From positions 32,001 through 96,000 of the IMG/VR virus record IMGVR_UViG_3300046665_000434: a stretch of 64,000 bases of DNA, one strand, 5' to 3'. Source of the stretch: a virus. Numbering within the stretch: the stretch's first letter is position 1; each line of letters opens with the position of its first letter. A model generated the notes under the pieces. That model saw only the letters and a program-made list of their open reading frames with translations, ran no database searches and was not told the origin of the DNA. Of the stretch, positions 5,903 to 43,953 are shown piece by piece. A program made the position numbers and the translations under genes.

Positions 5903-6751
5903 ATGTTCCACGATATCATCAAAGCTGGCCCCATCGTGGAACGCGCTCTGCTCTTTGCTGCCGCAGCTCATGCGGCAGTTGAACAGAAGCGTAAGTACAG
6001 TGGCGAAGACTACATCAATCATCCGATGGAAGTATGCCGCATCCTCATGCACCACGGCGTTCACAACCAGACGATTTTGGCAGCTGCTTTACTCCACGAT
6101 GTCATCGAAGATACGGGCGTTACAGAAAAGCAACTGCGGATGTATTTCAGTAAAGACGTGGCCGATGTGGTCATGGACCTTACCGATGTGTCGAAACCTG
6201 AAGACGGTAACCGAAAGACCCGTAAAGACCTCGATCGCCAACATTCGGCAAACGGTTCCTGGGAAGCTCAGACGGCCAAGTACGCCGACTGTATCAGTAA
6301 CGCCAGGTCAATTCGAAAAGACGATCCTGATTTCTGGAAAGTCTATCGTCACGAAATGCTGGCGCTGCTTGACATCATGACTGATGGCGACCATGTATTA
6401 CGTCATTTCGCGCTCCTTGAACTCGGGGCTGCACCACCTATCAGTGTATCGTACCGCGAACACCGTTGGGGTTGGGAAGGTCGCGAGGGTGAGGAACCAT
6501 TGGTCGAAGGGACTGTCAGTTCTCTGGAAGAGTTGATGAAAGTGCCCTTCATCAAGCGCCGGCGGGAAGGAAAGGGTTTTCATCAGTTTAGCGTCGCAGT
6601 CCCCGGGGACTCGAAGCTTATCGACACCGCCGTCTCTCACTTGATGGTGGAGTCCGGTAGCCCACGGGAGAGTAAGGTCATCGGGATCTTGGTAGGTGAC
6701 TTTAAGCTACTGGGTCTCCCGTACTGGGATGATTGGCAGATTCAGGCGTGA
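5903..6751 (+). CDS. RelA/SpoT-type HD hydrolase (small alarmone hydrolase/Mesh1-like) with C-terminal extension
   Basis: AH..QKRKYSGEDYINHP, AALLHDVIEDT, KYADCISN motifs. Confidence 0.85.
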   Translation: MFHDIIKAGPIVERALLFAAAAHAAVEQKRKYSGEDYINHPMEVCRILMHHGVHNQTILAAALLHDVIEDTGVTEKQLRMYFSKDVADVVMDLTDVSKPEDGNRKTRKDLDRQHSANGSWEAQTAKYADCISNARSIRKDDPDFWKVYRHEMLALLDIMTDGDHVLRHFALLELGAAPPISVSYREHRWGWEGREGEEPLVEGTVSSLEELMKVPFIKRRREGKGFHQFSVAVPGDSKLIDTAVSHLMVESGSPRESKVIGILVGDFKLLGLPYWDDWQIQA

Positions 6752-7259: not shown

Positions 7260-8075
7260 ATGACTACAGTCGTATTTGATGGGAAGATTCTGGCAGCCGA
7301 TTCGCGGTGTACTGTTTTTCACAACACTACCGAAGAGGTCTGCACAAACTGTGCGACATCAGCTAACCGTACTATCAAGTCCTACGTGAAACTCCGCGTA
7401 CCGAAGAAGCCGGTGAAGTTCAAAGGCCAGACAGTGGCGGCAGTTACCGGCGCCGGTGCGACTGACTGGACGCACGGTATTCTCCACTGTATCGAGAATG
7501 AACTCGATATCGCAGCAACCCTCACGGCCATGTCGATGTTCGTCGCCAATACGTCCAGACCGCGACTGGTCTTTTCGGGGCGGGTGATGGTGGTTACTGT
7601 AGACGGCGCTTGCTGGCTGCTGGAAACCGAGGGTAATAAACTCAAAGAGACTGAAATCAAGGAGTTCCCGATCTCCATCGGCAGTGGTAGCAAAGCCGCA
7701 ATGACTGCCATCAAGTTCATGGGCCTTTCTCCTGTCGAAGCGGTCATGGTGGCCTCAGACATTGATGAAAGCACCGGCGGCGATGTGTCGTGGATATCGC
7801 TTGACGCTCCTGAGAAATTGGAGACCGTGAAGTTCAAACCTGGTTTCGCTGATAAGTTCAAGAAGGCCAGCAAAACTCCCACTGCCGCCAAGACACCTGC
7901 GGCTACACAGTCATCGGCCCCCAAGCGCTCAAACCCAGCGGCTGCTACCACCGCCAAAGCCCTCGACGCTGTTATCAAACACACCAAGGAGAATGTGAAA
8001 CCGAAGCAACTCGCTAAGAAACCACTTCGCCGCGGTGAAGCTGGACTCAAATCAACGCAGGAGACTAAGAAATAA
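7260..8075 (+). CDS. Ntn-hydrolase (HslV/proteasome-beta-like) peptidase with Ala/Lys-rich tail
   Basis: N-terminal MTT..., LAADSR, IGSGS and STGG motifs. Confidence 0.75.
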   Translation: MTTVVFDGKILAADSRCTVFHNTTEEVCTNCATSANRTIKSYVKLRVPKKPVKFKGQTVAAVTGAGATDWTHGILHCIENELDIAATLTAMSMFVANTSRPRLVFSGRVMVVTVDGACWLLETEGNKLKETEIKEFPISIGSGSKAAMTAIKFMGLSPVEAVMVASDIDESTGGDVSWISLDAPEKLETVKFKPGFADKFKKASKTPTAAKTPAATQSSAPKRSNPAAATTAKALDAVIKHTKENVKPKQLAKKPLRRGEAGLKSTQETKK

Positions 8076-31533: not shown

Positions 31534-32152
31534 TTACCGCCGATCAATGTGTTATGCAACAGAGCCCCACATCTACCAACAGTAAGGAAACGACATGGGA
31601 AGCTTTGAGCTACTCTTGTTTGTTCTAACATTGGTTTGGGTGGAAGTCCTCATCGCACTGGTCAACCTCATCGTCTACAAGAGCTTAACGTTCGAAGTGG
31701 GCGGCAAGTCTGAGTTCTGGCTGGCAAGTAAGGTGCGTAGCCGCACGGTAGGTTTCCAGGACCTACACGACGGCGTTGGCCCTTTGATGAGAACTAACTT
31801 CATTCGACCACATCTGGCCACGTCCGACTACAGCGCAGGGCATTGGCCCCTGGTCTAGCCATAGTCGCTTGGGGATAATCATCGTCTGACGTGCCACTAT
31901 GGGTACGCCACCCCAACCACAACCGATGCTCCCAACACGGGATAACCGTGACGATCGTACGGAAGAATTGTCCGTACACACTCCAGCCGGTTCTTACTCG
32001 CTGAAGGCTACACCTCCGCCCCGAGGTAAATTCCAGTGACGGTTTAATGTGCAAGGCGGATCAAGGCTGGCTGGCCGATGCTTCCGTTTTAGCCATTATC
32101 CTAGGTACTGCGACAGGGGCGGTTTTATTTTCATAACCTGAGGTATTTTGTA

Positions 32153-34550: not shown

Positions 34551-34627
34551 GCAGTATTAGCTCAGTTGGTTAGAGCGCAGCACTGTCACTGCTGAGGTCA
34601 CCGGTTCGAGTCCGGTATATTGCGCCA
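34551..34627 (+). tRNA. tRNA-Asp(GTC)
   Basis: cloverleaf; CAGCA-CTGTCAC-TGCTG anticodon arm; G73 and CCA. Confidence 0.95.
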
Positions 34628-34634
34628 CTTTCAT

Positions 34635-34710
34635 TCCAAGGTAGCTCAGTCGGTAGAGCAGCACGCTGTTAACGTGTTGGTCCCTGGTTCGAATCCAGGT
34701 CTTGGAGCCA
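34635..34710 (+). tRNA. tRNA-Asn(GTT)
   Basis: cloverleaf; GCACG-CTGTTAA-CGTGT; CCA. Confidence 0.95.
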
Positions 34711-34716
34711 CACAAA

Positions 34717-34792
34717 GGGTTAGTAGCTCAATTGGCAGAGCACCGGTCTCCAAAACCGGTTGTTGCAAGTTCGAGTCTTGCTTAGCCCGCCA
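34717..34792 (+). tRNA. tRNA-Trp(CCA)
   Basis: cloverleaf; CCGGT-CTCCAAA-ACCGG; CCA. Confidence 0.95.
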
Positions 34793-34798
34793 TGTTTT

Positions 34799-34885
34799 GG
34801 ATGATGTAGAGACAGATGGCTACTGTCAGCGGACTGTAACCCCGCCGCTTCATGCTAGAGGTTCAATTCCTTCCTTCATCCACCA
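34799..34885 (+). tRNA. tRNA-Tyr(GTA), atypical D arm
   Basis: GCGGA-CTGTAAC-CCCGC, long variable region, GTTCAATT T loop, ACCA. Confidence 0.8.
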
Positions 34886-34892
34886 CTTTAAT

Positions 34893-35017
34893 AGTCTTGT
34901 AGCTCACTGGTAGAGCGCGTCCTTTCGGTTCGACTCCGAACATGCCTCGGCTTCGGCCAACGGCGTGATCTGGATACACGGACGAGGTAGCAGGTTCGAT
35001 TCCTGCCTAGACTTCCT
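34893..35017 (+). tRNA. tRNA-Val(TAC)-like gene with 50-nt insert at 33/34 (34925..34974), 3' end TCCT
   Basis: AGTCTTG/CTAGACT acceptor, GCTC/GAGC D arm, CGTCC-TT[insert]TAC-AC-GGACG, GCAGG-TTCGATT-CCTGC T arm. Confidence 0.8.
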
Positions 35018-35023
35018 AGCAAT

Positions 35024-35192
35024 AACTCTGTAGCTCAGTTTGGATAGAGCGTCCTCATTTTTCCCCTAGGGGGATTGCAGGTTCAAGTCCTGTCCATTGC
35101 AAGTCCCCTAGGGGAGCCTTGGCTTTGGTGGCGGAATTGGTAGACGCGAACACGAGGAAGGTCACGGGTTCGATTCCCGTCATGAGTTACCT
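35024..35192 (+). tRNA. tRNA-Val(AAC)-like gene with 90-nt insert at 33/34 (35059..35148), 3' end ACCT
   Basis: AACTCTG/CA(T)GAGTT acceptor, TCCTC-AT[insert]AAC-AC-GAGGA, ACGGG-TTCGATT-CCCGT T arm. Confidence 0.8.
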
Positions 35193-35198
35193 GTTAAT

Positions 35199-35296
35199 GA
35201 TCCCCACTCCACTAAATCCCTCAAGGCGTTCTCTTAGGAGTTGCTGAGCGATGGTGGTGCGAGTAATAGCAAGTTAAAACCTTGTGGGGGTCACCT
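35199..35296 (+). ncRNA. degenerate tRNA-like RNA (acceptor stem plus T-arm-like hairpin, ACCT end)
   Basis: GATCCCC/GGGGGTC stem; GCAAG-TTAAAAC-CTTGT 5-bp/7-nt hairpin at the T-arm position. Confidence 0.55.
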
Positions 35297-35303
35297 TTTC
35301 AAT

Positions 35304-35380
35304 TGGGGTATAGCCAAGTTTGGTTACGGCAACGGGCTTTGATCCCGTCATCGCTGGTTCGAATCCAGCTGCCCCTTCCA
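35304..35380 (+). tRNA. tRNA-Gln(TTG)
   Basis: cloverleaf; ACGGG-CTTTGAT-CCCGT; 1-72 mismatch; CCA. Confidence 0.92.
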
Positions 35381-35385
35381 TTTAC

Positions 35386-35466
35386 GATCCTTTGCGACAC
35401 GGTTGCGGTGCCGATCCTGCGATAGTGAAGCATTAGTCCCGGCACTCGACGCCGGGAGGATCACCC
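35386..35466 (+). ncRNA. degenerate tRNA-like RNA (ACCC end)
   Basis: GATCCTT/GAGGATC closing stem; CCGGC-ACTCGAC-GCCGG hairpin at the T-arm position. Confidence 0.5.
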
Positions 35467-35475
35467 TTTCGTTAT

Positions 35476-35565
35476 ACTAGGTTCCTGCCTCGGGCAGGCC
35501 AGCTGTAGGTGACTGCGCGCAACTCCACCTCGGCTGTATGGATAATCGCCATGACCTGGTCACCC
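35476..35565 (+). ncRNA. three-hairpin tRNA-like RNA (ACCC end)
   Basis: ACTAGGTT/GACCTGGT closing stem; CCTGCC/GGCAGG, CAGCTG/CGGCTG and ATGG/CCAT arms. Confidence 0.5.
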
Positions 35566-35570
35566 TTTAT

Positions 35571-35659
35571 AGTCCTCTAGCTCAGTTGGTTCAGAGCGTC
35601 CCCCTATCTTGCTAACGACATGGGGAAGGTCGTAAGTTCGAATCTTACGAGGACTTCCT
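35571..35659 (+). tRNA. tRNA-Val(GAC)-like gene with 11-nt insert at 33/34 (35606..35616), 3' end TCCT
   Basis: AGTCCTC/GAGGACT acceptor, TCCCC-CT[ATCTTGCTAAC]GAC-AT-GGGGA, GTAAG-TTCGAAT-CTTAC T arm. Confidence 0.8.
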
Positions 35660-35665
35660 ATTTAT

Positions 35666-35810
35666 AACTCTATAGCTCAATTGGTAGAGCGCCATCATCT
35701 TTAGGTTGCGGGTTCGATTCCCGCATGATCCGCATGGATCATTAGCTCAATTGGCAGAGCAGAAGATCACGCGATGGAGGTTGCAGGTTCGAGACCTGCT
35801 AGAGTTTCCT
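35666..35810 (+). tRNA. tRNA-Val(CAC)-like gene with 69-nt insert at 33/34 (35699..35767) that is a permuted tRNA, 3' end TCCT
   Basis: AACTCTA/TAGAGTT acceptor, CCATC-AT[insert]CAC-GC-GATGG; insert has a T arm, ATGATCC/GGATCAT acceptor hairpin and D arm. Confidence 0.85.
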
Positions 35811-35950
35811 AATGCTAGACCCACCGGGAAGCGGGTAAAACGCCGAGGGGTTGAAATTGGCGTGATGGCCTAGAGGCTCATGTTGGCCCGAATGAGAGTG
35901 AGCGCATTGAAATAATCGGGCCCCCGCATCAACTACTACTACTAGACTAG

Positions 35951-36493
35951 ATGGTGATGCTAATGTTCATGTTGAAAATTATGTCCGGTGAAGACCGGCC
36001 AGATTCTGATGTCTCGAAGTCGTTCAAGGGCGTTATCCTTGGCGATGGGATGTCGTTCGAGTTCTCCCGTAAGGTAACGACTGAAACGGCTCTGCTGACA
36101 TTGACGAGCCCAGATGGCTCTCACGTCACTATGGACCTCGCCGGTAACGCTTACATCGTAAGTAACACCGGTAAGACCGTGGCGTCATTCGCTTACAGTA
36201 ACACCAAGCTCGTTGACGCTGAGGTAGCTAACAGGCCTACGTTCAGCGAGCACGAAGATCGTCGACAGCGAGCAGCTGCGAAGCCGCTCAACTCTGTCTC
36301 AGTGAGTGCTGAAGCGGAAGCACTTACCAGTGCCCGCATCCTCTGGTTGAGATTACACGAACCTAAACGCCTTGACCGGTTGCGTGTATGTCGAAGAGCG
36401 GACGGCAGTCTCGTAGTAAATGATCAGGTCGACACGGTCCGACAATTGGATCAGTGGGGTGTCCCAAACACCTACGGCGAACTACTGAATTAA
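35951..36493 (+). CDS. hypothetical protein inside the tRNA cluster
   Basis: 180 aa ORF; C-terminal domain paralogous to 40371..40685. Confidence 0.7.
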   Translation: MVMLMFMLKIMSGEDRPDSDVSKSFKGVILGDGMSFEFSRKVTTETALLTLTSPDGSHVTMDLAGNAYIVSNTGKTVASFAYSNTKLVDAEVANRPTFSEHEDRRQRAAAKPLNSVSVSAEAEALTSARILWLRLHEPKRLDRLRVCRRADGSLVVNDQVDTVRQLDQWGVPNTYGELLN

Positions 36494-36685
36494 AGAGATT
36501 TGGCTCCAAGCGGAATCGGGGGATTTCTAACTTGGGGCGTTGTCAGAACAGACGTTGGGCGCGGTTGCTTGAAAGATAGCGTGCTAGCCCATCGAGTTAT
36601 GCTTCCTCCGGCGGCGTTCTGATAACTAAGTGACGGGCTTCAATCCTAAGCAAGCCGGGGACCAAATTCTATTGGAGATAACAAC

Positions 36686-37024
36686 ATGGCGTTGGTAAAA
36701 GTACGGGTTGCGGTGACTCGCGAAAGTCTGCTGGGTCGTCTTCTGCAACTCGATCCAGAGATGGATCTCACTGACAGTATCAAGGCGGTTGAAGTTGAGG
36801 CGGTTATCGATGAAGCTGGCGTGAATCATCCCGATTGGGAATTCAACATCAGCACCATTGCTCCGTTCATCACCGGCGTTGGTACTGTCGCAGGCCATGG
36901 CAAGATCAGCTTTACAGTAAACATGCAAGATGGCGCCCTCACCATTGAGTCTACAGAGGCTGCTAAAGACCTGCTGCTGGTTCTCAAGGTTACGACCGAG
37001 AATCATAACCACCGTCCGGTCTGA
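36686..37024 (+). CDS. hypothetical protein inside the tRNA cluster
   Basis: SD GGAG, 112 aa. Confidence 0.75.
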   Translation: MALVKVRVAVTRESLLGRLLQLDPEMDLTDSIKAVEVEAVIDEAGVNHPDWEFNISTIAPFITGVGTVAGHGKISFTVNMQDGALTIESTEAAKDLLLVLKVTTENHNHRPV

Positions 37025-37036
37025 CAAGTTTTTTTT

Positions 37037-37111
37037 AGTATCGTAGCTCAGAGGTAGAGCGCGGCCCCGATAAGGCTGAGGTCCGTGGTTCGAAACCACG
37101 CGGTACTACCA
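37037..37111 (+). tRNA. tRNA-Ile(GAT) with C33
   Basis: AGTATCG/CGGTACT acceptor; CGGCC-CCGATAA-GGCTG; ACCA. Confidence 0.88.
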
Positions 37112-37334
37112 TGTGTGCTGATGCGCCGATGTCTTCGACTAGCAGCCTTTGAGCGGGTAGGTCGTGAGCATTGGCGCATTGGCGCCTCTTTTCCCCTCCG
37201 CAGGGGGAGACTTGAGACTATAGGGTATCTTGGTATCACGCCTGAGAATGTGTGCTGGCATATCCTGAAACCTCTGCTGGGAGGTGTCTTTCGTATGTAG
37301 GGGTACTCAGCTCCGGCATCCCGCGACTAATTTC

Positions 37335-38042
37335 GGATAGATAGGGAAGTGGCCAAACCCATCGGATTGACTTATTCTATGTATTTAAACATGGGATACG
37401 TCAATGAACTGCATCCACTGTCAGCGAGAATGTGTTAATTGGAATTCTCGGCGTGCACACGAGTGTCGTTGTCCGATGAATCCCAATCGGAAAGTCTTTA
37501 GCCCCAATCTAGGCAACCGACATTCTGAAGCTACTAAGGAGAGATGTAGGGCTGCCGCTCAACAGCAACATCGGCAAGGTTTAAGTGCCGGTTTCCCTAA
37601 CTGGGAAGGTAGAACTCATCGAGAAGAAAGTAAGTTAAGAATATCCCAAGCGCTGATGGGTAACAGGAATGGTAACCATCGAGGGGATCGACAGTCCTAC
37701 TATCGCGGGATCAGAATGGATTCTAGATGGGAGGTTCGTACTGCCGAGTGGTTAGATGACATGGGTTGTTATTGGAGATATTCTCCGAGGGGATTCCAGC
37801 TATCCGACGGGCGACACTACTATCCTGATTTCTTTGTCTATGATGATGAAGGTTGTTTAGATTACCTGATCGAAGTTAAAGGTTATTTTAGAGAAGGTAA
37901 TCGTTTGAAATTCGAAACGTTTAAACGAGAATATCCTGAAATAGAAATACGGTTGTGGGAGAAACCTCAACTTAAAGAATTGGGTATCCTTTAGAGTCCG
38001 GTCTCTATGAGTACGTCGGTTCGAATCCGACTCTGTCCTCCA
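37335..38042 (+). tRNA. type II tRNA (Leu-TAG-like) split in the anticodon loop by a 623-nt endonuclease-encoding insert (about 37369..37991)
   Basis: 5' half GGATAGA-TA-GGG..CCC-A-TCGGA-TT; 3' half TAG-AG-TCCGG, variable arm, GTCGG-TTCGAAT-CCGAC, TCTGTCC-T-CCA. Confidence 0.8.
37404..37994 (+). CDS. putative homing endonuclease (Zn finger, NUMOD3-like motifs, PD-(D/E)XK domain)
   Basis: CxxC..HxxxC, GRTHREESKLRIS, DSRWE...YYPDF...IEVKG; lies inside a tRNA gene. Confidence 0.85.
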   Translation: MNCIHCQRECVNWNSRRAHECRCPMNPNRKVFSPNLGNRHSEATKERCRAAAQQQHRQGLSAGFPNWEGRTHREESKLRISQALMGNRNGNHRGDRQSYYRGIRMDSRWEVRTAEWLDDMGCYWRYSPRGFQLSDGRHYYPDFFVYDDEGCLDYLIEVKGYFREGNRLKFETFKREYPEIEIRLWEKPQLKELGIL

Positions 38043-38060
38043 ATTGATGGAAAGGTAACC

Positions 38061-38489
38061 ATGTCCACTACGCCTCATGTTCGAGTTGGTGTCGCAGTCC
38101 TTATTCGGAGGGCTAACGGTAAGCTTCTCGTTGGTCGTCGTCAAGGAAGTCATGGCGCTGGTACTTGGACTGTCCCTGGTGGACATCTGGAGTTCGGTGA
38201 ATCGATCGAAGACTGTGCTCGACGTGAAGTGGCTGAAGAGACTGGCCTTACTCTGCTGAGCGTATCGGTAGGTTTTGCCGTAACCAATGATATCTTCACC
38301 GAAGTCAACAAGCACTACATCACCGTCTGGGTGGAAGCTACCGTCGGTGAGATTGACGAAGCCGAAAACCTAGAGCCTGAGAAGTGCGATGGTTGGGAAT
38401 GGTATCATGGACCAGAGGTTCCCACACCTCGATTCCTAGGTCTCCAGAACTTGATAGATCAACGTCCAGCCTACTGGAGTTATACTTGA
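38061..38489 (+). CDS. Nudix hydrolase (MutT/NUDT15-like)
   Basis: GGHLEFGESIEDCARREVAEETGL Nudix box; NLEPEKCDGWEW. Confidence 0.92.
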   Translation: MSTTPHVRVGVAVLIRRANGKLLVGRRQGSHGAGTWTVPGGHLEFGESIEDCARREVAEETGLTLLSVSVGFAVTNDIFTEVNKHYITVWVEATVGEIDEAENLEPEKCDGWEWYHGPEVPTPRFLGLQNLIDQRPAYWSYT

Positions 38490-38498
38490 TACCATATT

Positions 38499-38628
38499 TC
38501 CATGATAGCTACTCGGAAAGGCGCCGTCAATGGGTTCGACTCCCGTTACCCTTAGGGGTATGTTGCCACCCGTACGGGTGGCTTGGCATAGACGGAGATT
38601 GTAGGTTCGACCCCTGCTCATGGAACCT
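38499..38628 (+). ncRNA. tRNA-like RNA with a second T arm inserted in the anticodon loop, 3' end ACCT
   Basis: TCCATGA/TCATGGA acceptor, CCGTC/GACGG stem, inner ATGGG-TTCGACT-CCCGT, outer GTAGG-TTCGACC-CCTGC. Confidence 0.7.
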
Positions 38629-38669
38629 AATCTTCAGCACAGTAGCCTATTCACGTTAGGAGTATTTTC

Positions 38670-38819
38670 ATGAGTATCGAAAACGAAAAGATCGTAACCG
38701 AACGGAAAGCTTCCGGGCCAAATCTCTCGATGCCGAAATGGAAACCCAGTCAGAAGCTCGCTGATGAGATCGGCGATGAACTTGCGGAACTGATGGCGAA
38801 AGAAGCCTCGGCCAAGTAA
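38670..38819 (+). CDS. small hypothetical protein
   Basis: SD AGGAG; MSIENEKIVTERKASGPNLSMPKWKP... (49 aa). Confidence 0.6.
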   Translation: MSIENEKIVTERKASGPNLSMPKWKPSQKLADEIGDELAELMAKEASAK

Positions 38820-38834
38820 GCACAACTCTTTAAT

Positions 38835-38940
38835 CCCTGGTCGACCATGCGGGGTTGGGCCTATACCCACGATACGATACGATCTAGCTACACGTCCGTC
38901 GTGGTTATTTGTCGGGAGTTCGATCCTCTCACTCGGGGCT
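38835..38940 (+). pseudogene. degenerate tRNA-like element
   Basis: GGGAG-TTCGATC-CTCTC T arm followed by ACTCGGG pairing imperfectly with CCCTGGT; no clear D arm or CCA. Confidence 0.35.
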
Positions 38941-38955
38941 GTATTTGGAGTCGCT

Positions 38956-39159
38956 ATGCTTGACAACGTTGAAGAAAATGTTGAGTACAGGTCTCCATCA
39001 GGGATCAGGTTCAAGGTAACCAGTATAGCGAGACATGCTCAGGATTGTTCCTGGCCCATGATCGTATACACTAATCTCGAACCTACCAAAGACGCACCTA
39101 CCGGTACAGTCTGGGTTATCGCTGAGTCGATATTTCTGAGAACGTTTTCGCGGATATAG
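38956..39159 (+). CDS. DUF1653-like small protein
   Basis: YRSPSGIRFKV...ARH...VY...W...F pattern; SD GGAG. Confidence 0.65.
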   Translation: MLDNVEENVEYRSPSGIRFKVTSIARHAQDCSWPMIVYTNLEPTKDAPTGTVWVIAESIFLRTFSRI

Positions 39160-39223
39160 TTTAATGGTAGAGCCTCAGCCTTCCAAGCTGTTGACCCGAG
39201 TTCGATTCTCGGTATCCGCTCCA
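39150..39223 (+). tRNA. tRNA-Gly(TCC)
   Basis: GCGGATA/TATCCGC acceptor; CAGC-CTTCCAA-GCTG; TCCA. Confidence 0.95.
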
Positions 39224-42413: not shown

Positions 42414-42845
42414 ATGTCCATTAGACCGCCAGTGTTGGCGATTGATCGCCAGAAACATTATCGTGATGCATTTACCGATAAAACGATGCGGCTCTATCTG
42501 CCCGTCAACGATCGGGACGAGGTGGTCGAGCACACTAACGGAGAGTGGTTGAAGTGCTGGACCTGGACCGATGTTGAAGGTGAGGTCCCGGTTGCGCTGT
42601 CATCGACAGCGGTGGGTATTTCCCACGCTCTGTTGTGGGCTCCTCGAGAAGATGCCCGTTTGACGCCAGATGGCGTGGTGATCGTCATGGCGCCATTACC
42701 TCGCAGTGTGGCATTCAATAGCCTCAGTAAGCTCGACCAATGGTCACGGCATCTGGAGCGGTCACCTGAATTTGATATCGAGTATCGAGTCGAGACAAAA
42801 CCGATATTCGTCGTTAATGACCCTGAAGAAAATCCACGTAATTAA
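42414..42845 (+). CDS. hypothetical protein
   Basis: 143 aa ORF. Confidence 0.65.
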   Translation: MSIRPPVLAIDRQKHYRDAFTDKTMRLYLPVNDRDEVVEHTNGEWLKCWTWTDVEGEVPVALSSTAVGISHALLWAPREDARLTPDGVVIVMAPLPRSVAFNSLSKLDQWSRHLERSPEFDIEYRVETKPIFVVNDPEENPRN

Positions 42846-42861
42846 TAAGGAGGGTATTCCC

Positions 42862-43953
42862 TTGGCTGAGAAGAAACCTTTGCTGCTGTTCTCCGGTGGT
42901 CTGGACTCCACGTACATCGCGTACAAACACTTCATTAAACAAGAACAGTTCGATATTGTCTATATCGATGGTCGCCAATCTCGTCGTAAAATCGAGGTCG
43001 AGGAGGCTGTTCGTGGTGAGATCCTCAATTGGTTACGTAAGCATACTGAGTTCTCCTGCTATCCTCGCCAACACTCCGCGGCGTCTACCGTGGACTGGTC
43101 TAACGCTACCAGCGCCGGGTTTCGTCAGGCTATGGCTTGGTTTGTATGCGCTCTGGAAGTGGTCGATCCACACGTACACTCTTGCGTGGAAATCGGCTAT
43201 GTTGCAGGTGATCAGATCTCATCCAATCTCGATACCCTGATCGCCGCTTGGAACGCGCTCTGGCCGGTAGCTAAAATCAGCGACAGCGTGGTCCCATTGA
43301 AATTTCCTCTTCGTTATACGACGAAGACTGAAATCATGAACCATATGCCGAAGGATCTGTACGAACTCACTTGGGTGTGTGAGCTTCCTAAGGGTGATGT
43401 TCGTACAGGGTATAAACCTTGTGGTGACTGTGTTCCATGCGATACCCGAGGAATGCTCGAGTACTCCAAAGCTCGTCGGAAAATGACTGCTGAAGAGCAA
43501 AGTCAGCTCGATGCATGGATCGGAAAAACTCTCGATCTGCGCCAACTGGCGAAACCTGAAATCGTGGCAGCGACTGCAAAGGACGCATATAGCGTTACGG
43601 ATAGTGTACAGGAGATCGTCGAGATCGCCAAGAAACTTTCCGAACCTGCCGATGAGAAGCCGGTCACTTACCAACTTGACTGGTCGAAGGTAAAGCAGGG
43701 AGGTACTGATGTCGCCAATGCGTTACAACAGCTTACCGATACAGCGCTGGCGATCAATAAACTCCCTCCTTCGGAAATGGCAAAACTGTTTGTGCTCGAT
43801 GATCACGGCGACCCTCTTCCAGTTGCAGACGGCGCGGTAAAATGGGTAGATCCGATGACATCTGTGCTTAAACGGGATCTTGAGGAACGCGGGTATATGG
43901 ATGCGATCCCATCGGGGCCGGTCAATGACTTACGGAAGGAGGCTGACCTGTAA
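42862..43953 (+). CDS. QueC-like PP-loop ATPase with C-terminal extension
   Basis: LLFSGGLDST PP-loop; TWVC...PCGDCVPC Zn site; TTG start after SD AAGGAGG. Confidence 0.8.
   Translation: MAEKKPLLLFSGGLDSTYIAYKHFIKQEQFDIVYIDGRQSRRKIEVEEAVRGEILNWLRKHTEFSCYPRQHSAASTVDWSNATSAGFRQAMAWFVCALEVVDPHVHSCVEIGYVAGDQISSNLDTLIAAWNALWPVAKISDSVVPLKFPLRYTTKTEIMNHMPKDLYELTWVCELPKGDVRTGYKPCGDCVPCDTRGMLEYSKARRKMTAEEQSQLDAWIGKTLDLRQLAKPEIVAATAKDAYSVTDSVQEIVEIAKKLSEPADEKPVTYQLDWSKVKQGGTDVANALQQLTDTALAINKLPPSEMAKLFVLDDHGDPLPVADGAVKWVDPMTSVLKRDLEERGYMDAIPSGPVNDLRKEADL

Follow-up and report, generated by a model that had tools for sequence, protein, structure and literature searches.

Ordinary tRNA genes and tRNA-like genes with different encoded 3' ends in the tRNA array of an uncultured phage

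The tRNA array and its aberrant units

The window described in this study is a stretch of 64,000 nucleotides (nt) of IMG/VR virus record IMGVR_UViG_3300046665_000434 (positions 32,001 to 96,000), a phage contig of 154 kb with an estimated completeness of 62%. It contains a group of tRNA genes in which ordinary members, which encode the 3'-terminal CCA, stand beside aberrant tRNA-like members, which encode CCT or CCC. The helicase of the contig shares approximately 40% identity with its counterparts in phiKZ-like jumbo phages of Xanthomonas, Pseudomonas, Burkholderia, and Erwinia. The tRNA-like signal of the whole contig is confined to window positions 34551-39223, and the part from 34551 to 35810 forms one array of 12 consecutive units with spacers of 5-9 nt, most of which have T at position -1, as in tRNA arrays; the arrangement is that of a co-transcribed tRNA array. 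The ordinary genes, i.e., seven intact tRNAs and one split tRNA, are as follows.

34551-34627, plus strand, tRNA-Asp, G-CCA end (ARAGORN)
34635-34710, plus strand, tRNA-Asn, G-CCA end (ARAGORN)
34717-34792, plus strand, tRNA-Trp, G-CCA end (ARAGORN)
34799-34885, plus strand, tRNA-Tyr, A-CCA end (ARAGORN)
35304-35380, plus strand, tRNA-Gln, T-CCA end, located among the aberrant units (ARAGORN, Rfam)
37037-37111, plus strand, tRNA-Ile, A-CCA end (ARAGORN, Rfam)
37335-38042, plus strand, split tRNA, 3' half with a T-CCA end at 38042 (ARAGORN intron mode)
39150-39223, plus strand, tRNA-Gly, T-CCA end (ARAGORN, Rfam)

The first four genes open the array (34551-34885) with spacers of 6-7 nt, and the Rfam tRNA scores of tRNA-Asp, tRNA-Asn, and tRNA-Trp are 66-70 bits. 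The split tRNA is interrupted by an endonuclease open reading frame (ORF) of 196 amino acids (37404-37994) with a NUMOD3 motif (Pfam) and weak similarity to endonuclease I and DUF1064. This ORF occupies nearly all of the 623-nt gap and therefore leaves no space for a ribozyme core; no group I intron match was found in Rfam at the split tRNA.

The eight aberrant units comprise five tRNA-like genes with an insert in the anticodon loop (E1-E5) and three minimal acceptor/T-arm RNAs (D1-D3).

34893-35017, plus strand, E1, insert of 50 nt, T-CCT end (CCT at 35015-17), Rfam tRNA score of 49.5 bits (loop insert of 53 nt in this match)
35024-35192, plus strand, E2, insert of 90 nt, A-CCT end (CCT at 35190-92)
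35199-35296, plus strand, D1, ACCT tail, predicted fold (z = -3.1) closed by a stem, 4-nt overhang
35386-35466, plus strand, D2, ACCC tail, predicted fold (z = -2.9)
35476-35565, plus strand, D3, ACCC tail, predicted fold with a closing stem
35571-35659, plus strand, E3, anticodon loop of 18 nt (11 extra nt), T-CCT end (CCT at 35657-59), Rfam tRNA score of 55.3 bits
35666-35810, plus strand, E4, outer tRNA body around a permuted module, T-CCT end (CCT at 35808-10)
38499-38628, plus strand, E5, insert of 55 nt, A-CCT end (CCT at 38626-28)

The anticodon loops of E1-E5 range from 18 to about 97 nt, compared with 7 nt in canonical tRNA. The insert of E2 contains a second T arm together with a D arm of Leu type, and the acceptor stem of this gene has one bulge; the permuted module of E4 takes the order T arm, closed 7-bp hairpin, and D arm; and the insert of E5 contains a second T arm and two hairpins. 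ARAGORN calls E3 as Val(gac) i(36,11). The gathering threshold of the Rfam tRNA model RF00005 (29 bits) is passed by E1 and E3 only when the insert is skipped. E2 and E4 give partial matches only (22-28 bits, with matches of 27.9 and 23 bits inside E2), and E5 and D1-D3 do not match this model. No intron family of Rfam matches the inserts (11-90 nt) at E <= 1. Each insert of E1-E4 is flanked by a retained U33 and by NAC-purine-pyrimidine, with four different NAC triplets; the label "Val-like", under which these four genes were first described, has one basis only, the NAC beside the 3' strand of the anticodon stem.

In the predicted folds of all five genes, the molecule is closed by a 5'/3' stem, with 4 nt overhanging at the 3' end. 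The outer bodies of E1-E4 share just 64-72% identity, and E5 is 44-59% identical to E1-E4, which is no nearer than unrelated tRNAs of the same phage. The bodies are thus diverged and the trailers are unalignable, and recent duplication alone therefore does not explain the common CCT. The sequences of the five anticodon stems are all different, with 5/5 pairing in each, and the acceptor stems of the paralogues show compensating changes; the stems vary yet stay paired, which points to maintained RNAs rather than decaying pseudogenes.

The anticodon arm is absent from D1-D3. In these units, a hairpin with a 7-nt loop directly adjoins the 3' strand, and in the predicted folds the 5' and 3' ends pair in a closed stem, from which 4 nt overhang. 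When the whole 154 kb contig was scanned uniformly for T-arm/acceptor combinations, 19 chance matches turned up beyond the tRNA region; one of these carries CC at 74-75, and another ends in ACC in a different register.

A few kilobases from the array, a 415-amino-acid ORF (window 42706-43953) has a weak match to QueC of queuosine synthesis.

Encoded 3' ends in the window and in related phages

CCA is encoded by all eight ordinary tRNAs of the window and by none of the eight aberrant units (Fisher p = 1.6e-4), and the same test with each paralogue family counted once (8 versus 3) gives p = 0.006. Chance is ruled out as the cause of this split. The preliminary description of the window, which was made from the sequence alone, had reported the CCA, CCT, and CCC ends as well as a U discriminator in three of the four Val-like genes. 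Every one of these ends is correct, and E1, E3, and E4 have T as the discriminator, with A in E2. An intergenic element that was not counted in that description (window 38835-38941) has a good T arm (GGGAG-TTCGATC-CTCTC), a closing stem of 6/7 pairs, and a G-CTG tail, and it breaks the CC rule.

Homologous arrays were found in five related uncultured jumbo-phage contigs by means of an unusual tRNA-Tyr motif and the D2 pattern.

IMGVR_UViG_3300011799_000001 (G001)
IMGVR_UViG_3300042147_000020 (G005)
IMGVR_UViG_3300046542_000086 (G006)
RCUL01000042.1 and near-copies (G007)
Ga0247820_10007037 and near-copy RCUS01003022.1 (G008)

Protein searches with a 180-amino-acid ORF, a NUDIX ORF, and a crAss001_48-like ORF retrieved no relatives, the 180-amino-acid ORF matching itself alone, and blastn searches against GenBank phages with E4 and with E1/E2/D1 as queries yielded generic tRNA matches only. 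A 15-mer taken from the end of D2 proved too short, returning 114 mostly random rows, though one related sequence (L226) surfaced among them. The elements of the relatives were classified by hand, and the D families were searched with patterns derived from known members, so that undetected elements might alter the counts given below.

Across the six phages, CCA is encoded in 41/41 ordinary tRNAs and in 6/38 non-canonical elements (p = 2e-16); when the phage of the window is excluded, the counts are 33/33 and 6/30 (p = 4e-12). The remaining non-canonical elements end in CCT or CCC (22 elements) or in GCA, TCA, GCC, AAT, CTT, or ACA (10 elements). CC is kept in 28 of the 38, compared with an expectation of 1/16. 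In the cultured phages Psa21, RVTF4, and BcepSaruman, all 22 tRNAs that were read encode CCA, and encoded A76 is therefore strongly kept for the real tRNAs of this group.

D2 has homologues in all five related phages; in the alignment of this family (A1), neither the closing stem nor ACCC varies, while the trailers have diverged. D2 ends in ACCC in five phages and in ACCT in the sixth, and a further family, D4, ends in ACCC in four phages; the trailers differ throughout in both families. The D families thus show the pattern most clearly. It is less uniform in the insert-bearing families, designated X and Y in the relatives, where X2 ends in CCT in two phages and in GCA in a third. For the X and Y elements too, the predicted fold is closed by a 5'/3' stem and leaves a 4-nt overhang.

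After the CCA of ordinary tRNAs, the trailer opens with a pyrimidine in 69% of cases and with A in 19%. In the insert-bearing class, CC followed by a pyrimidine is therefore not separable from a missing A76 with the usual trailer next to it, and selection for pyrimidine 76 itself was dropped as an explanation for this class.

Other tRNA-like elements were encountered in the course of these searches. Pseudomonas phage RVTF4 (PQ015378.1) contains at 5905-5995, just upstream of tRNA-Tyr, a free-standing permuted tRNA-like element that is unannotated in the record; its order is 3' strand of an anticodon-like stem, T arm, closed acceptor-like hairpin, D arm, and 5' strand, and it resembles the inner module of E4 on its own. 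In Pseudomonas phage Psa21 (MK552327.1), a tRNA-like element directly after tRNA-Tyr (6393-6470; ARAGORN Gly(acc), also unannotated) combines an anticodon stem of 8 bp with a T-GCT tail that lacks CCA. It is followed by a conserved noncoding stretch of approximately 120 nt (AAAACGAGGCG ... GCAGGGTAATCAG.AACTAGGG), which occurs in the tRNA regions of Psa21 (6470-6575) and two uncultured relatives (L242, reverse strand, 2420-2545; L248, reverse strand, 7361-7470), with no Rfam match seen. A repeated unit of 130-200 nt, which starts with CTTTTAACA and contains GGTTTTACC, is located after tRNA-Tyr and tRNA-Gln in several relatives (reverse strands of L122, 604-800; L226, 9439-9584 and 9664-9830; L248, 5107-5240 and 5326-5490). 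It is missing after tRNA-Tyr in the window, where E1 is found instead. An uninterrupted 71-nt tRNA-like element with an AAC triplet at the place of the anticodon, G33 in place of U33, and an A-GCA tail (L248, reverse strand, 6482-6555; L245, 4269-4342) may be an insert-free relative of the Val-like E family. The pattern "D arm then T arm too soon" retrieved mini-tRNA-like elements with truncated anticodon arms from unrelated phages. Many such IMG/VR contigs (L002-L106) contain elements with normal acceptor, D, and T arms and an anticodon arm of 9-13 nt, and CCA is not encoded in most of the few that were inspected.

Processing, charging, and alternative explanations

The eight aberrant RNAs of the window retain the acceptor stem, a T-arm-like hairpin, the discriminator, and C74-C75, and lack A76 and a working anticodon arm. 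On balance, they are probably stable, uncharged tRNA mimics that are processed like tRNAs and in which A76 is either not selected or selected against. Every clearly decoding RNA of the group keeps an encoded A76, which disfavors reliance on a host enzyme for RNAs that need charging; the aberrant RNAs keep CC and not A, and they are therefore most likely not working through charging. This evolutionary argument is the strongest for the mimic interpretation; from it and from known enzymes we infer how the RNAs are processed, where they finally end, and that they are not charged.

Bacterial RNase P measures the stack of the acceptor and T arm, and L15/P15 of its RNA pairs with the tRNA 3' end (PMC4919913). 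Host RNase P, which needs this stack and pairs with C74-C75, would release all of the units from one precursor, and the short trailers would then be nibbled by 3' exonucleases that stall at CC. In Escherichia coli, RNase T removes the trailer and A76 and halts at CC, and the CCA-adding enzyme restores the A (PMC5824355). The preliminary description had proposed that CC is kept for processing, and the retention of CC far above chance in the non-canonical elements fits this, in view of both the L15/P15 pairing and the stop of RNase T. The function of the released RNAs would not depend on aminoacylation, and A76 would accordingly be unkept or counter-selected. The authors of the RNase T study (PMC5824355) proposed, as a model rather than a direct measurement, that RNase T prefers purine ends and leaves CCU and CCC untrimmed (PMC6468291). 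The CCC tails, which are the rule in the D families, probably persist, as RNase T would be blocked by the 3' C and position 76 would not be free for the CCA-adding enzyme; CCU tails may be shortened to CC, after which that enzyme of the host would add the A. An RNA of this kind can gain CCA, as Mycobacterium smegmatis YrlA, a tRNA-like Y RNA, is cleaved by RNase P and then acquires a CCA that is not encoded (PMC4201824).

Genes for a CCA-adding enzyme (PolyA_pol family), RtcB, or Ro60 were not found in the contig (62% complete) or in three relatives, and a phage-encoded enzyme that adds CCA or A, an RtcB ligase, and Ro60 were each considered and dropped. Any addition or repair of A76 would therefore be by the host. 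The phage genes give no sign of a splicing kit. The CCACCA tag requires G1-G2, and its avoidance as the reason for the absence of CCA was likewise dropped, as the elements start with AG, AA, TC, GA, or AC.

A73 and A35 are identity elements for valine, and A76 is needed for aminoacylation (PMC9976931); the preliminary description had cited A73 and A76 as established, which they are, and had concluded that the aberrant RNAs avoid being charged unless the CCA-adding enzyme repairs them, as non-translating mimics or as a gate that delays activation. The selection that keeps A76 in ordinary tRNAs (41/41) is absent from the aberrant RNAs, which favors mimics. U76 is no firm block, as in E. coli a trailer is cut back to CC by RNase T and the A is then supplied by the CCA-adding enzyme (PMC5824355).

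Several observations weigh against the interpretation as uncharged mimics. X1 and Y2, which are insert-bearing families of the relatives, mostly end in CCA, and an insert and a full CCA are therefore compatible. The GCA, TCA, GCC, and AAT ends, together with one Y2 copy without any CC, look more like single-step changes of various kinds away from CCA than like a defined CC-pyrimidine signal. A pyrimidine at position 76 in the insert-bearing class is expected from the trailer composition (family-level p = 0.23). RNase T is not known from outside Gammaproteobacteria. Finally, phage T4 makes working tRNAs from genes without CCA with the help of the host nucleotidyltransferase (reference 42, as cited in PMC6468291), and a missing A76 is thus no proof of non-charging. 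The preliminary description had spoken of a "3' end code"; in view of the X1 and Y2 families and of the GCA, TCA, GCC, and AAT ends, this fails as a strict rule, and CC without A is a strong tendency, not a code. It had also named random CCA and CCT among homologues as speaking against its interpretation, and such a mixture is present in part in the insert-bearing elements but not in the D elements. The split between ordinary and aberrant genes is nonrandom and recurs in relatives, and as a whole the earlier interpretation is partly supported.

It is unlikely that relaxed selection alone accounts for the ends, i.e., that the aberrant genes are functionless or decaying tRNA derivatives with randomly hit remnants of CCA as tails, in which CCT and CCC result from descent and from T/C-rich trailers. 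The tails of the relatives are indeed mixed and one step off CCA (CCT, CCC, GCA, TCA, and GCC), and the pyrimidine excess matches the trailer composition. With A at 19% of the first trailer bases, the small number of A76 among the CC-keeping families would not be significant by a rough, uncomputed estimate. Decay of this kind, however, does not agree with the compensating changes that preserve the stems while the loops and trailers are saturated, with the 28 of 38 elements that keep CC when 1/16 is expected, or with the tRNA-like spacing of the units in the array. Nor does it agree with the conservation of D2 and D4 in four to six phages, where ACC does not vary and C76 hardly does; the retention of C76 beside unalignable trailers argues for constraint on this base.

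Maturation that depends on the host, either as in T4 or as a timing gate, is less probable still. In this case, the CCU would be trimmed, A would be added by host Cca, the inserts would be removed or tolerated, and E1-E4 would be valine tRNAs, with the missing A merely making them depend on, or lag behind, host Cca. The T4 genes for tRNA-Gln, tRNA-Pro, tRNA-Ser, and tRNA-Ile mentioned above, which produce working tRNAs in this manner, provide a precedent, as does the trimming to CC by RNase T and repair by Cca. U33 and NAC-purine-pyrimidine flank each insert with four different NAC triplets; four distinct first letters, however, arise by chance in 9% of cases (4!/4^4). The inserts are too short (11-90 nt) for a self-splicing intron and match no intron of Rfam, and neither an RtcB-type RNA ligase nor a CCA enzyme was found in the phage or the three relatives. 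U73 is present in three of E1-E4 although A73 is an identity element for valine (PMC9976931). The clearly decoding tRNAs keep A76 in 41/41 cases, and the same would be expected of these genes if they were charged. Moreover, D1-D3 have the same type of tail yet no anticodon arm. The gene ends are predicted from sequence here, but it is highly improbable that the CCT and CCC triplets are coincidental or misread and not RNA 3' ends, given the p values of 1.6e-4 in the window's phage and 4e-12 in the other phages and the 7-bp acceptor stem beside the T arm that fixes the register in each element.

The interpretation as uncharged mimics has a stronger form, in which CC followed by a pyrimidine is a positively selected end that means "process like tRNA, never charge or repair" and that marks a new class of phage RNA; we regard this form as doubtful. 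If it is true, the class would consist of nested double-elbow tRNAs and minimal acceptor/T-arm RNAs that sequester, as decoys or sponges, host factors recognizing the tRNA shape, such as tRNA-cleaving defense nucleases, 3'-end-modifying toxins, RNase P, or the CCA-adding enzyme. As a rule, phage tRNA genes are regarded as a codon supply or as a counter to tRNA-cleaving defenses. In this giant-phage lineage, ordinary tRNAs are accompanied by varied, conserved tRNA-shaped RNAs whose 3' ends systematically are not the acceptor end. The 3' end may thus provide a simple sequence mark that separates decoding tRNAs from tRNA mimics in phage genomes, and the end pattern argues against the insert-bearing genes as intron-containing valine tRNAs.

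Comparison with known systems

The tails of E1-E5 and D1-D3 (CCT or CCC) differ from those of canonical tRNA, which is CCA in 41/41 ordinary tRNAs of the group. The genes also differ from group I intron-containing tRNA genes, as the inserts are only 11-90 nt and no ribozyme core was matched. The tRNA cluster of T4 is similar in that it is a phage array with short spacers, an internal homing endonuclease gene, and some genes without an encoded CCA, which also need RNase BN, and in that it contains additional stable RNAs (C and D) of unassigned role. On the other hand, the T4 genes without CCA (Gln, Pro, Ser, and Ile) are normal working tRNAs from which the whole triplet is gone, whereas the CC-pyrimidine genes described here all have aberrant bodies. 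The gene for stable RNA D of T4 encodes ACCA, and T4 shows neither a split between classes nor a CC-only tail.

The inner module of E4 (35700-35767) has the same arm order as YrlA (RF02553), which is bound by Ro60/Rsr, and was aligned to positions 23-88 of that model with 41.8 bits and E = 8e-7. M. smegmatis YrlA also shows that tRNA mimics are handled by the enzymes of tRNA end processing (PMC4201824). The module differs from YrlA in that its score is below the gathering score of 69, the Ro60-binding stem is absent, and it is nested in the anticodon loop of another tRNA body; moreover, no match to Ro60 (TROVE, PF05731) was found in the 154 kb contig (62% complete). The YrlA model of Rfam was rejected as a detector, as tandem tRNAs trigger it as well.

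The 3' end of turnip yellow mosaic virus RNA is likewise a viral tRNA mimic with valine-type features. Its encoded end, as reportedly described by Litvak in 1970 (cited in PMC5723415), lacks the last A and is completed by the host nucleotidyltransferase, which makes it a functional parallel for ends that a host enzyme finishes. It differs from the present RNAs in that it belongs to a plant RNA virus, has a pseudoknotted acceptor at the end of the genome, and is charged, whereas those described here are small DNA-encoded RNAs in a phage array. The mammalian mascRNA and MEN-beta resemble the phage RNAs in having a non-decoding tRNA shape that is freed by tRNA-processing enzymes and whose fate is set by the CCA-adding enzyme (PMC4919913); they are, however, eukaryotic and cut from long noncoding RNAs, and CCA or CCACCA is added to them after transcription. 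The present case is thus one of tRNA mimicry, a known kind, in a new form.

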